Positions 2,243 through 62,379 of a stretch of DNA of 64,000 bases are shown one piece after another. The position numbers and the translations under genes were made by a program. Under the pieces are notes generated by a model. The model made no database searches. It was given only the letters and a program-made list of their open reading frames with translations, and was not told where the DNA came from. Numbering within the stretch: the first letter of the stretch is position 1; each line of letters starts with the position of its first letter. The stretch covers positions 34,811 to 98,810 of the forward strand of contig CAMZBI010000003.1 of NCBI GenBank assembly GCA_947304585.1, given 5' to 3'. The stretch is from an uncultured Clostridia bacterium (lineage in GTDB: Bacteria > Bacillota > Clostridia > UBA1212).

Positions 2243-2362
2243 AGCGGACGGTGGGCAGTGGTCAGTTTAAAGTGGACAGTTGAGGTGCGGCTCCGCCGCG
2301 ATTGCCGGAGCGCCTGCTGTGGAGTTTTCGTGCGAAACCGAACCTCAACTCATCACTACAAC
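2243..2362. repeat. Heptamer-array element A: + arm of 7-bp units, GC-rich core, inverted arm
   Basis: Units agcggac ggtgggc agtggtc agtttaa agtggac agttgag gtgcggc. AGTTGAGGTGCGG (2278-2290) matches the reverse complement of CCGAACCTCAACT (2338-2350) at 12/13. Confidence 0.75.
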
Positions 2363-2381
2363 AGTTTTCTTTAATTATCTG

Positions 2382-2410
2382 TTGCGCACCGCTGTCTTTA
2401 TTAATATAAT
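2382..2410 (+). promoter_or_regulatory. Putative sigma-A promoter
   Basis: TTGCGC-17 bp-TATAAT upstream of the ATG at 2446. Confidence 0.55.
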
Positions 2411-2445
2411 AAAGTCGTATTTTGTATGACTTTTGGAGATTGTTT

Positions 2446-3303
2446 ATGAGCGACAATAATATTGGCAATACCGGTTCGGATATAAGGCAGGAGCACGAGA
2501 CTTTTCTGATCAACATGAAGAAATTTCTGTGCATTGCTCTTGCCGTTGTTTCTTTCGTTGGAGCCGGCTTCTCTTTCTACACCTTGAACTGCAAATACCT
2601 CGAGGCTTTTTCCGGATTTGAGTACGACGACAATATCCTGCCTTTTATCGTCTACTTCATCGCCAATGTCGCCGCCTTTGTTTTCCTCGGTATTTTTGGG
2701 ATCATTGCCGCAGGAGCTAAAACCAGGCAGGACAGGCTTAAGACTGCCAGGCAGAACTACAGACGCACCCCGGGTTCATATACCGACGTCTCAAAAGAGC
2801 GTCAGACCGTAAGAGAGATAAACAGGCTGGAGTCCGCCGAAAAGACTGCAAACGTCTTTATGGTCTTGTTTGGGGTATTGGCGGGTCTGCTGTTTGTTGC
2901 TTTGTTCTTTACTTCCGGCGTTCCAAAGACAGTGATCGAGCTTTCCAAAAAGCCCATCGACCGTCTGAATAAAGACTACAGAGTCATTTTAGACCTGCTG
3001 TCCCAGTTTTTCTTCACGGTATCGGTTGTTTTCTCGCTTATCCTCATTCCGAAGATAGCGAAGGGCGATAAAGTCAACACTGTTTTTGCGGTCATTGCAT
3101 TTGCGTTTTCTGTACCGGCCATCCTTCACTATGCGTACTTCTTCTTCGGCAATATCACCGCCCACGCATCTCCGGAGGACCTTGCGGTTCTGCTGGTGCC
3201 TCTTATTCTTTGCGGATTCATTGGCGTGTATTTTGCAGGGGAGCGTAGGAAGAAGATTATCAAAGGGTTCTCGGAAGGGGAGTCATTGCCAAAAACCGAT
3301 TGA
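2446..3303 (+). CDS. Hypothetical multi-pass membrane protein
   Basis: Several hydrophobic segments; GGAGA RBS before ATG 2446 (track start 2422). No family recognised. Confidence 0.7.
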   Translation: MSDNNIGNTGSDIRQEHETFLINMKKFLCIALAVVSFVGAGFSFYTLNCKYLEAFSGFEYDDNILPFIVYFIANVAAFVFLGIFGIIAAGAKTRQDRLKTARQNYRRTPGSYTDVSKERQTVREINRLESAEKTANVFMVLFGVLAGLLFVALFFTSGVPKTVIELSKKPIDRLNKDYRVILDLLSQFFFTVSVVFSLILIPKIAKGDKVNTVFAVIAFAFSVPAILHYAYFFFGNITAHASPEDLAVLLVPLILCGFIGVYFAGERRKKIIKGFSEGESLPKTD

Positions 3304-59646: not shown

Positions 59647-60485
59647 TAAATATTCTTTTCTGCGGCAACGAAGGGGTTTTTGACGGTGTTCTCACCTGCA
59701 TGCTTTCGATCCTGAAAAGGACCGAAACGAAGGAGCCCTTTAAGTTCCACGTCTTCACTATGGATCTTACTGATCTTAAGCCAAACTATACACCGGTAAC
59801 GGAAGACCACAGGAAGTTTCTTGAGGACATTGCCAAAGAATACAACGGCGAAAACACCGTGGTTCTTTTTGACGTCACGGAGCTTTACAAAGAACATTTT
59901 TCCGGATGCCCCAACGAGAGCGCATACTGCTCGCCCTATACGCTTATAAGGCTTCTTGCGGATCTGGTGCCCGGGCTTCCCGACAAAATGCTCTACCTTG
60001 ACACCGATATTATGTTCAACAGGGACGTAATGCTTCTTTATAACATTGACGTTGAGGATTACGAATACGCAGCGGGCCGCGATCACTACGGGAAATATCT
60101 GATCAACCCCAATTACATCAACGCCGGGGTTCTCCTCTTCAACATGAAAATGATGCGTGAGACCGGCATATTTGCCAAGGCGAGAGACTGGCTCCGCAAA
60201 AAGAAGCTGGTGTTTGCCGACCAGAGCGCGCTTATAAGATCCACAACAAAGAAAAAGATGCTGCCCCAGCGGTTCAACGACCAGAAGTTCCTTCACAAGC
60301 ACACCGTTGTAAGACACTTTTCGAAGAGGCTCTTCTGGCTGCCCTACCCCCACACCGACAATATTAAACAGTACCACGTGACCAAAGTCCACAAGGTCTT
60401 CAGGTATTTCGTCTTTGACGACATACTTTTTGAATACATCTATCTGAAGAAAACTTTTGACAAGCAGCAGAGCGGCAAACTCTGA
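59643..60485 (+). CDS. Glycosyltransferase family 8
   Basis: RLLADL, YLDTD (DxD), INAGVLLFN, DQSAL, VRHF. Confidence 0.87.
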   Translation: MINILFCGNEGVFDGVLTCMLSILKRTETKEPFKFHVFTMDLTDLKPNYTPVTEDHRKFLEDIAKEYNGENTVVLFDVTELYKEHFSGCPNESAYCSPYTLIRLLADLVPGLPDKMLYLDTDIMFNRDVMLLYNIDVEDYEYAAGRDHYGKYLINPNYINAGVLLFNMKMMRETGIFAKARDWLRKKKLVFADQSALIRSTTKKKMLPQRFNDQKFLHKHTVVRHFSKRLFWLPYPHTDNIKQYHVTKVHKVFRYFVFDDILFEYIYLKKTFDKQQSGKL

Positions 60486-60507
60486 GATCATACGAAAGGA
60501 ATTACTT

Positions 60508-62286
60508 ATGAAAAAAGCCGTAATACCGATTTTTTACGCCTGCGACGATAACTTCGCCAAATACACCGCCGTGTCCATCACCTCTCTGAAGGAACACGCA
60601 ACAGCTGATTTTGAATACGACATCCATATACTTAACGCCGGCCTCTCGCCGGAGACTGTTCAAATGTTCAGAAACCTGGAGTCTTCCGAGATCAGGCTGA
60701 TCTTTGTTGACGTGTCTGACTACCTGCTGAACGTTTCCGAAAAACTGCCCCTCAGGGACTATTATTCCCGGACCACGTATTACAGGATGTTCATTGCCGA
60801 GATGTTCCCGGAGCTTACAAAGGCCATATACATCGACAGCGACACGGTGATTTTGAGGGACGTTTCGGATCTTTACTATACGGACATTGGCGACTGCTTC
60901 GTCGGCGCCTGCCACGAACAGGTAATGGTGCAGATCGACACCTTTGGCACGTACGTTGAGAAAGCCCTTGGCCTTTCAAGGTACAGTTTCTTCAACGCCG
61001 GTATCCTTCTCATAAACTGCGAGGAGTTCAGGCTCCATTTCGTCCTCGACAAATTCATATACTACCTCAGACTCTACAATTTTGTGGTCACCCAGGACGA
61101 GGACTACCTGAACGTCATCTGCAAGGACCACGTTTTCTGGCTTAACCAGCGGTGGAACACTCAGACGCTTGATTACATTCCCTTCCCCATTGACGAGGCC
61201 AGGATAATCCACTACTGCCTCTACAACAAGCCCTGGCACTACGCCGACACAAAGCACGGAGACATTTTCTGGAACTACGCCAAAAAGACCGAGGTATATG
61301 ATATACTTAAGCAGGAGCTGGAGTCGTACACCGACGAGCAGAAGGCGAAGGACGTACAGGGTGCAGAGAACCTGTTAAAGCTTGCAGATACAGAAACCCA
61401 CAAGGAGGACAATTTTCTCAATATGGTCAACGAACAGCACAGATCATCCGACAGAGTGGAGATCGTCAGAAAGATTGAAGAATTTGAAAAACGGGGCAAT
61501 TTCTTTGAGGACGTGGAAAATGATCCGCCCTCCAAAGAACTCTTGCCAAACGAGATCGATTACTACAGAAAAGGCATTGTCCAGAAGATACAGACAAAGT
61601 TTGCGTTTATCATCGCCCACAGATACGTTAAAAGTCTGATAGCGGAGAAGAAGTTCATACTGAAGGCGATAAAAGGCATTGAATATTTCAAAAATCTGGA
61701 TTCCGGTGCGGTGATAACATGCAACCACTTCAATGCCGCAGACAGCTTTGCGATCCAGCTGACTTATGAGGCCGCAGACCAGCCCAAGAGGAAGTTTTAC
61801 AGGGTAATCAGAGAAGGAAACTATACCTCGTTCCCAGGCTTTTACGGCTTCCTGATGAGAAACTGCAACACCCTTCCCCTCTCCTCCAACAAGGAGACCA
61901 TGAAGAAATTCATCAGGGCCACTGACCAACTTCTCAAAGAGGGCAACTTCGTACTGATATATCCCGAGCAGGCCATGTGGTGGAACTACAGAAAGCCAAG
62001 GCCCCTTAAGAGAGGTGCATTCGTATTCGCTGCGAGAAACATGGTGCCGGTGCTGCCCTGCTTCATAACAATGAAAGACTCGGACAACATTGACGGCGAC
62101 GGGTTCCACATTCAGGAATACACTGTAAACGTGGCGCCGCCAATATATCCCGACCCGTCGCTTTCCGAAAGGGAAAACACAAAGATGCTGATGGAGAAAA
62201 ACTCCGCCATTTGGAAGGATATTTACGAACTGACCTACGGAATACCGCTCAGCTACACCTGTGATACGGAGAACAGTGAGCAGTGA
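60508..62286 (+). CDS. Fusion: GT8 glycosyltransferase plus C-terminal PlsC-like acyltransferase
   Basis: GT8: YYRMFI, YIDSD, FNAGILL, QDEDYLN, IIHYCLYNKPW. Acyltransferase: CNHFNAAD (HX4D), LIYPEQAMW, VPVLPCF. Confidence 0.87.
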   Translation: MKKAVIPIFYACDDNFAKYTAVSITSLKEHATADFEYDIHILNAGLSPETVQMFRNLESSEIRLIFVDVSDYLLNVSEKLPLRDYYSRTTYYRMFIAEMFPELTKAIYIDSDTVILRDVSDLYYTDIGDCFVGACHEQVMVQIDTFGTYVEKALGLSRYSFFNAGILLINCEEFRLHFVLDKFIYYLRLYNFVVTQDEDYLNVICKDHVFWLNQRWNTQTLDYIPFPIDEARIIHYCLYNKPWHYADTKHGDIFWNYAKKTEVYDILKQELESYTDEQKAKDVQGAENLLKLADTETHKEDNFLNMVNEQHRSSDRVEIVRKIEEFEKRGNFFEDVENDPPSKELLPNEIDYYRKGIVQKIQTKFAFIIAHRYVKSLIAEKKFILKAIKGIEYFKNLDSGAVITCNHFNAADSFAIQLTYEAADQPKRKFYRVIREGNYTSFPGFYGFLMRNCNTLPLSSNKETMKKFIRATDQLLKEGNFVLIYPEQAMWWNYRKPRPLKRGAFVFAARNMVPVLPCFITMKDSDNIDGDGFHIQEYTVNVAPPIYPDPSLSERENTKMLMEKNSAIWKDIYELTYGIPLSYTCDTENSEQ

Positions 62287-62379
62287 AGAGTAATAAGTTA
62301 AGCGTGAACAGTGAAGAGTAATCAGTTAAGAGTGAACAGTGAAGAGTGATTAGTTAACAGTGATTAGTGAAAAGTGATT
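62275..62379 (+). repeat. Heptamer array I (15 units, with a 28-bp higher-order repeat)
   Basis: agtgagc agtgaag agtaata agttaag cgtgaac agtgaag agtaatc agttaag agtgaac agtgaag agtgatt agttaac agtgatt agtgaaa agtgatt. Confidence 0.92.

Follow-up and report, generated by a model that had tools for sequence, protein, structure and literature searches.

The 64-kb window analysed here, a stretch of contig CAMZBI010000003.1 from an uncultured Clostridia bacterium, carries arrays of degenerate heptamers with the core AGT in its spacers. The observation of such 7-base arrays after gene ends is confirmed, and within the 64 kb it takes three forms: a full cassette (17803-18704), in which two inward-facing arrays enclose a gene of protein family PF05635, gene-less pairs (2243-2362, 44013-44311 and 46034-46179), and single arms (from 32743, 42928 and 62271). 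The arrays probably derive from an inserted cassette with a protein gene of the 23S rRNA intervening sequence (IVS) type, and we hold it to be fairly likely that they are the arms of a lineage-specific intergenic heptamer family whose complete form is this IVS-like PF05635 cassette. The window is a new Bacillota member, from rumen Clostridia, of a published class of polar heptamer repeats; the class and its polarity rule were already known.

Arrays were detected by a chain scan for AGT at a spacing of 7 (score of at least 3), with 30 dinucleotide shuffles as control. Ten chains were found in the window, while the shuffles averaged 0.43 and never exceeded 2. Eight lie on the forward strand (2257-2280, 17817-17833, 17874-17890, 32747-32777, 44027-44057, 46034-46057, 46074-46097 and 62275-62375, the last with 15 units) and two on the reverse strand (44263-44307 and 46148-46178). 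When all 64 trinucleotides and periods 4-12 were compared, runs of at least four occurred with AGT/ACT at period 7 only. A core-independent detector of lag-7 self-similarity, with a false-match rate of about 0.1 per 64 kb, recovered the same loci and no further word family. The AGT-N4 arrays of period 7 described in an earlier, sequence-only reading of this DNA are thus borne out, and the window holds exact 7-nt tandem units above chance, as the polar heptamer class does. Two arrays, at 18665 on the reverse and at 42928 on the forward strand, stay below the chain threshold with three AGT in five to six units; both carry the exact junction described below. Every array of the window is intergenic, and the AGT strand consists of 54-71% purines and 3-13% C.

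Several arrays close in the same way. The junction AGTTGNNGTGCG, which the sequence-only reading had given as AGTTGNN-GTGCG(G), occurs in four exact copies (2278+, 18666-, 42956+ and 44055+), each at the inner end of an array, where chance would give about 0.12 copies with 10 fixed bases over 128 kb. Seven further matches carry one mismatch, and two of these, 46103+ and the variant at 2339- that had likewise been noticed before, also close arrays. The total of 11 matches compares with 3.27 expected and is reached in 0 of 100 shuffles. Six array ends, one of them belonging to a cassette arm, hence have a common junction. The junction common to the copies shows spread by copying instead of independent origin, and since it is found at six array ends, it argues for a dispersed element family and against independent decayed microsatellites.

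The left arm of the cassette, array B (17803..17890, forward strand), starts 33 nt past the stop codon of a DD-carboxypeptidase-like gene (16484-17770) and consists of about 13 degenerate NNACAGT units. Within the cassette, a GC hairpin, CAGCCGT...ACGGCTG followed by TTTAAATTTT (17930..17954, forward strand), is by its sequence the probable terminator of the upstream gene. A promoter-like element, TTGAAA-17-TGgTATAAT with a near-consensus extended -10 box, can be read at 17985..18013 on the forward strand, upstream of the PF05635 gene (18227..18592, forward strand). The latter encodes 121 residues of a 23S rRNA intervening-sequence protein or Avd-like four-helix bundle (Pfam E 1e-15); its nearest solved structure is PDB 2RLD (E 1e-21), BT_0352 of Bacteroides thetaiotaomicron, which was deposited with 5 chains. 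A second GC hairpin, GCGGCGCC...GCGCCGC (18642..18668), lies past the PF05635 stop and in front of the right arm, array C (18665..18711, reverse strand), which reads …AGTGAAT TGTTGAG CGTGGAC AGTGATG AGTTGCG GTGCGG and contains the exact junction at 18666-18677. The TGA stop of an M50-like gene (18705-19382, reverse strand) is located inside the AGTGAAT unit of array C. The window thus contains a PF05635 gene between inward-facing heptamer arrays; with protein-coding genes on either side and no rRNA in the window, the cassette is not a 23S rRNA IVS in the strict sense.

Within 17985-18226, the promoter-like element is followed by a leader of roughly 200 nt with a hairpin GAAAAGAGA...TCTCTTTTC, and Rfam gave no match there at the gathering threshold. 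Among 1.8 billion representative proteins, no relative with more than 46% identity to the window protein was found, and a word-based homologue search with it returned only the self-match. One library protein, P0122 (3710 residues), is matched by the 121-residue query at 15 separate places (E 7e-26) and could represent either a giant repeat protein or an artefact of read-through.

A survey that started from the protein shows PF05635 genes to be regularly accompanied by heptamer arms. A metagenome scan was performed with a 16-sequence PF05635 alignment, a 50-sequence set being too diverse, and 80 loci were chosen by protein alone. An array of period 7 occurs within 300 bp of the PF05635 gene upstream in 57 of 80 loci, downstream in 49 and on both sides in 47; for unique proteins only, the respective counts are 54, 46 and 44 of 76. 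Array density near the gene is 2.83 per kb versus 0.17 per kb in the remainder of these loci, a 17-fold difference. The words of the arms vary by locus (GAATAAT, TGACAAT, GAATAGT, GCGGAAT, AATTCGG, GAAGAGT and others), and arm-word similarity grows with PF05635 protein identity; the window protein shows no specific closeness to cassettes whose words contain AGT. Within a locus, the upstream arm and the reverse complement of the downstream arm have the identical word in 25 of 47 cases (1.6% for arms of different loci) and agree in 6 or more of the 7 letters in 36 of 47 (9% for arms of different loci). The strand that reads inward is purine-rich in approximately 80% of the arms. For one cassette in a cultured organism (L247), contigs from an RNA run, which cannot reveal processing sites, extend from the upstream gene through the R arm and the PF05635 gene into the Y arm. 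Elsewhere in the same organism the cassette arms recur joined by a 31-nt loop, i.e., as gene-less pairs.

Among the window's relatives, a hidden Markov model (HMM) built from 148 PF05635 homologues was run on all open reading frames (ORFs) of the collected loci and found one PF05635 gene outside the window, directly after leuS in locus L075. This gene is flanked by a short array on the forward strand and an array of about 120 nt on the reverse strand (AAGARGT units), which face inward, and it adjoins the only AGT-core array in 1.39 Mb of relatives' loci. No paper linking PF05635 to heptamer repeats in general was found in a full-text literature search. In the survey, the PF05635 genes most similar to the query (L196-L201, L203-L206, L208 and L211; 50-80% identity to protein P0124) have no flanking arrays of period 7; there may be a PF05635 subfamily with other kinds of arms or none.

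Comparison with orthologous loci indicates that the cassette was inserted. The leuS product is 74% identical to its best match among GTDB representatives (Mageeibacillus sp. UBA1255), and the other matches are gut or rumen Clostridia metagenome-assembled genomes. At the cassette site, three relatives (83, 77 and 74% identity in the DD-carboxypeptidase-like protein) have a spacer of 71-98 nt with a plain terminator between the same two convergent genes, compared with 934 nt in the window; neither a PF05635 gene nor an array occurs anywhere in their loci of 12-21 kb. From these short, array-free spacers we infer that the 934-nt cassette is an insertion in the window's lineage, polymorphic at a conserved site. 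For the closest relatives, syntenic loci (L188-L195) were collected via the URO-D-like protein. In L188 and L189 (89% identity), the nearest two, the leuS-argS spacer measures 1 nt instead of 146 nt, and these two loci as well as L276-L281 have no arrays at the orthologous spacers. An AGT scan of 80 relatives' leuS loci gave a single array, that of L075, and a generic scan of 1.39 Mb (the leuS loci plus L188-L195) added, apart from a few weak matches, only the arrays of L192-L195 and a pair in L001. The L001 pair (9794-9944), in the closest named relative Mageeibacillus sp. UBA1255, is an inverted GGCAAAT pair just upstream of leuS; its word differs from those of the window, while the architecture is alike.

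Presence and absence among relatives, dispersal and a common junction are what remains of the earlier proposal of a family similar to repetitive extragenic palindromic (REP) sequences or miniature inverted-repeat transposable elements (MITEs); target-site duplication, transposase and REP palindrome were not found. REPs, bacterial interspersed mosaic elements (BIMEs) and REP doublets (REPINs) of Enterobacteria and Pseudomonas are short, dispersed extragenic elements that often lie past stop codons, and paired RNA hairpins of this kind can stabilise the upstream mRNA. REPs themselves have a fixed palindromic sequence of about 35 nt that ends in GTAG, and they go together with a REP-associated tyrosine transposase (RAYT). 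The window arrays resemble them in being short, dispersed, extragenic, often past stops and arranged in inverted pairs, and their conserved end lies beside a GC hairpin. All of this would also be expected of a REP/REPIN- or MITE-type element mobilised by a transposase, RAYT or other, encoded elsewhere in the genome. We nevertheless regard such an element as very improbable. The arms are tandem heptamers of variable length and unit order, and no REP-type conserved palindrome was found in them; GTAG followed by a hairpin occurs at the junction only at 42960-42979, whereas the other junctions have GAGG, GCAG or GCGG. No target-site duplication is visible at the leuS-argS and cassette sites when compared with the empty sites of relatives, the cassette spacers being too diverged for a base-exact comparison. 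No transposase was seen within the window, the rest of the genome not having been searched for RAYT. A MITE was rejected on the grounds of the missing duplication and transposase.

Four loci of one sister species from four samples (L192-L195; 86% identity; GCA_017444825.1 and three metagenome strains) carry six single arrays in similar spacers, all in sense orientation (in L192 at 11019-11063, 12350-12408, 13293-13337, 15063-15117 and 19056-19194). Their core is RGT (AATAGGT, AAGAGGT), a GC-rich head, GTGCCGGAC, is conserved on the gene-proximal side, and one sense RGT array of L192 abuts the argS ATG. Between one strain and the other three, which are otherwise identical, there is an exact indel of one 7-nt unit. 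Because of this indel and the 28-nt super-period of array J in the window (see below), arrays are shown to gain or lose whole 7-nt units by slippage. Among sequencing runs, a single one, of bovine gut DNA, matched the window; it covers 9% of the window words, and its low-depth contigs displayed no variant in array length and no RNA.

Unit slippage is also what ordinary decayed microsatellites would undergo, i.e., repeats grown locally from a chance AGTGA or AGTAA seed close to a stop, neither dispersed nor linked to PF05635. The strain indel and the 14/28-nt super-period of array J are in agreement with such an origin, as is the statement, as relayed in PMC4679880 from Mrazek 2007, that heptamers are the commonest long simple-sequence repeats of prokaryotes and are ascribed to polymerase slippage. 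Still, we consider this origin improbable, since it leaves unexplained the junction AGTTGNNGTGCG at six array ends, the conserved head of the sister-species arrays, the strict polarity, the 17-fold enrichment beside PF05635 genes with words that match in both arms, and an arm length that peaks at 4-5 units and does not decay monotonically. Random orientation, lack of a conserved junction and lack of indel polymorphism, named in the sequence-only reading as signs of decayed microsatellites, were not observed in the window and its relatives. The comparison of orthologous loci proposed there yielded presence/absence as well as unit-number polymorphism, the latter by the 7-nt indel of the sister species.

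The orientation of the arrays tracks the flanking gene. Single arrays are in sense orientation in 3 of 3 cases in the window and in 6 of 6 in L192, and in array-bearing viral contigs 128 arrays lie in sense after a stop versus 29 in antisense after a stop. Altogether the arrays are confined to non-coding spacers, the purine-rich AGT strand runs from the flanking gene into the spacer, and sense arrays at or after stops, antisense arrays before starts and convergent pairs occur as in the heptamer class. The sense-strand bias relative to the preceding gene and the inward-facing pairs are as the sequence-only reading had described them. Compared with its count of eight arrays at or just after a stop, seven cases were read from the sequence; array 17803 begins 33 nt past its stop, and the pair 2243-2362 belongs to a divergent 5' region. 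The seven stops in or at arrays are located at 18705 (reverse strand), 32748, 42940, 44021, 44312 (reverse strand), 46177 (reverse strand) and 62286. A terminator scan around the arrays gave no more matches than in shuffles, which rules out the arrays themselves as intrinsic terminators.

Sense arrays after stops would also suit an RNA binding track, (N-AG-U-N3)n, read by an oligomer of the HutP or TRAP type that controls termination, stability or translation of the neighbouring genes. In the hut leader of Bacillus subtilis, the ring-shaped HutP oligomer reads XAG triplets with 4-nt spacers (PMC2425495), which amounts to the same 7-nt period and AG core, so that the window conforms to the sequence pattern; in addition, arrays occur between stop codons and terminator-like hairpins. 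HutP sites, however, form two groups of three motifs within one 5' leader, in contrast to 4-15 units at many gene ends in the window. Half of each pair presents ACT instead of AGT units in the mRNA, cassette arms of other lineages use words without AG (AATTCGG, AAACATT, AATTGAC), and the orthologous genes of the closest relatives do without arrays, which implies no conserved regulation. No candidate protein was identified in the window, the rest of the genome not having been searched for one. A binding track is therefore unlikely in our view.

Within nearly every heptamer unit there is a TGA, TAA or TAG, so that the arrays terminate ORFs and donate stop codons and last residues. As anticipated in the sequence-only reading from the period of 7, the AGT strand of most arrays has stops in all three frames. 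One may therefore think of modules selected as back-up stops against read-through and frameshifted products, all the more as seven ORFs end in an array and the URO-D-like protein exceeds its orthologues by 4 residues. Such stop donation comes about automatically, however, with AT-rich units and a period not divisible by 3; three units would suffice, yet up to 15 are present, the orthologues of close relatives manage without arrays, and arrays also occur upstream of start codons and in the divergent promoter region (2243-2362). Selection for stops thus hardly comes into consideration. Whatever their origin, the stop codons, the C-terminal residues and the operon hairpins of the arrays affect gene calling and operon models in metagenome-assembled genomes.

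For the favoured interpretation, arms of an IVS-like PF05635 cassette, we propose the following course. The gene-less pairs and single arms would be reduced forms of the cassette, the module being copied to new spacers, where its length then shifts by whole-unit slippage. Judging from predicted folds, inverted pairs would form long stems in transcripts, which may be cut by RNase III or may protect upstream 3' ends, by analogy to the stems of 23S rRNA IVS. The pair of arrays H and I (46028-46182, reverse strand) has a strong predicted hairpin in the leuS-argS transcript, of -33.5 kcal/mol compared with -18.1 kcal/mol in shuffles (z -5.6). Single arms might be tolerated only if the mRNA receives their purine-rich, C-poor strand; it is a speculation that the C-rich, G-poor complement would be an unstructured, Rho-attracting or otherwise harmful RNA. 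The repeat family is fast-evolving and probably for the most part selfish or near-neutral.

Several observations weigh against this interpretation. The degenerate NNACAGT arms of the cassette differ from the regular single arrays (GAACAGT, GAAGAGT, GATTAGT), and the two are linked by the AGT core and one junction only. The 64-kb window contains one PF05635 gene only. The fold of the pair 2236-2372 is no better than shuffles (z -0.9) and hence not a significant hairpin, and J, the longest array of the window, is a single arm, a form that cannot fold into a hairpin. Arrays are not detectable at about 40% of the PF05635 loci, those nearest the query among them. The PF05635 HMM found no copy in 107 array-rich viral contigs, which means that arrays far outnumber cassettes.

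Heptamer repeats serve strain typing in cyanobacteria, whose short tandemly repeated repetitive (STRR) sequences reportedly comprise the words CCCCAGT and CAACAGT, described by Mazel in 1990 and cited in PMC4692102. The related TAACTGA repeats are found in Beggiatoaceae, Cyanobacteria and Bacteroidetes and differ by 7-nt indels between strains (MacGregor 2015, PMC4679880). Like the window arrays, STRR and TAACTGA repeats are intergenic heptamers with words that end in (C)AGT on one strand (the reverse read of TAACTGA is given as TATCAGT), with a patchy, lineage-specific distribution and 7-nt strain indels. The differences are as follows: in Beggiatoaceae the ACT strand is sense just upstream of starts, whereas the window has the AGT strand in sense after stops; TAACTGA repeats copy one word almost perfectly, whereas in the window only 3 of 7 positions are constant; and no Bacillota were reported to have them (PMC4679880).

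In Xanthomonas, GGGAATC heptamers occur in sense up to 50 bp after stops, stop overlap included, and in antisense up to 50 bp before starts; each genome has 70-75 convergent inverted pairs, and the majority of the repeats is transcribed (Rehm et al. 2015, PMC4692102). These repeats and the GGGGA(C/T)T repeats of Nostoc resemble the window arrays as intergenic tandem heptamers of the same polarity with convergent pairs (PMC4692102). Their words, however, are G-rich and form G-quadruplexes, while those of the window are A/G-rich, with an invariant AGT and no G-tracts, and much more degenerate. A link to PF05635 was not reported in that study (PMC4692102).

In the 23S IVS of Coxiella burnetii and Leptospira, as in the window cassette, a PF05635 gene lies between complementary arms and the presence varies among relatives (PMC4990558). 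In Coxiella, the IVS with its S23p ORF has 3-4 strain-variable GACAGAT heptamers before the ORF, and the stem is cut by RNase III (Warrier et al. 2016, PMC4990558). The window cassette differs from it by its location between protein-coding genes, its promoter-like site, its leader and its long, degenerate arms at a distance of about 800 bp.

More tentatively, PF05635 pentamers and heptamer arrays might constitute one two-part system across phyla, in which the pentamer would read, in RNA or DNA, five successive units of the word beside its own gene and act in trans on the gene-less arrays dispersed over gene ends; we regard this as possible, though doubtful. It fits the same word in both arms, the similarity that rises with protein identity, the peak at 4-5 units, the five chains of 2RLD and the gene-less pairs of the L247 organism. 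The arm length beside PF05635 genes peaks at 4-5 units, with some detection bias toward at least 4-5 units, and twelve array-dense contigs of high GC content have 86 arrays of exactly five units, 24 of four and 8 of six. Together with a pentameric protein family, the five-unit peak suggests one subunit per heptamer, while copying of a 35-nt module or an optimal stem length would account for it just as well. If true, the two-part system would account for the STRR-type repeats, which have lacked an explanation since 1990. With the survey that started from the protein, an old descriptive puzzle becomes a testable pairing between a protein family and a repeat type.

The remaining arrays of the window are as follows. 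Array A has a left arm (2243..2289, forward strand; GGGCAGT GGTCAGT TTAAAGT GGACAGT, then the exact junction AGTTGAGGTGCG) and a right arm (2339..2362, reverse strand; TTGTAGT GATGAGT with the junction variant AGTTGAGGTTCG), which enclose a GC-rich core (2290-2338) and belong to a divergent 5' region, not to a gene end. Array D (32743..32777, forward strand) is single and reads AATTAGT TAAGAGT GAACAGT TAAGAGT AATTAGT, the first unit holding the TAG stop of an alcohol dehydrogenase gene. The single array E (42928..42979, forward strand), with the units GAACAGT TAACAGC AGAAAGT GAACAGT, the exact junction AGTTGTAGTGCG and the mini-hairpin TGCGGtcaaagCCGCA, contains the TAA stop of a carboxylesterase gene.

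Array F (44013..44066, forward strand) gives the URO-D-like gene its last codons and its stop and ends in the exact junction AGTTGCAGTGCG; as the reading frame enters the array, the protein has 334 residues compared with 330 in relatives. Opposite to it, across two terminator-like hairpins, array G (44249..44311, reverse strand) lies immediately past the argS stop. Array H (46034..46114, forward strand) consists of two blocks, 46034-46057 and 46074-46097, with the junction variant AGTGGTTGTGCG, and pairs with array I (46144..46179, reverse strand), whose first unit holds the leuS TAG stop. In the mRNA array H appears as ACT units that reach the argS start codon. This ACT-reading arm stops 3 nt (46031-46033) before the argS ATG, the argS start being at 46030, and no Shine-Dalgarno sequence is visible. 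The single array J (62271..62377, forward strand) comprises 15 units with a 14/28-nt super-period (86% matches at 28 nt), is followed by a terminator hairpin, and supplies the last approximately 4 codons and the TGA stop of a GT8-acyltransferase gene.

Of about 14 gene ends in the window that have a real non-coding spacer, 8 carry an array. An Rfam scan of the window returned two tRNAs only. In the region of phosphotransferase system (PTS) and amylosucrase genes (33170-40540), beside a tRNA-Arg, no spacer contains heptamer arrays, which fits an accumulation of arrays in resident DNA over time.

Arrays of a similar kind were seen in phage-like contigs of IMG/VR with 57-62% GC (L168, positions 1-8000, as well as L105, L109, L131 and L139), where inward NNNCAGT pairs lie between almost all small genes. 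Their words are AATCAGT, GATCAGT and GGCCAGT, and the centre of the pairs is conserved as AAAGGCAAAA or AAAGGCCAAA. L168 has 33 arrays in 11.5 kb, most of them with five units exactly, and in L109 a fixed module, AGAAAGT TATCAGT GATCAGT GGCCAGT GATCAGT, recurs every 50 nt.

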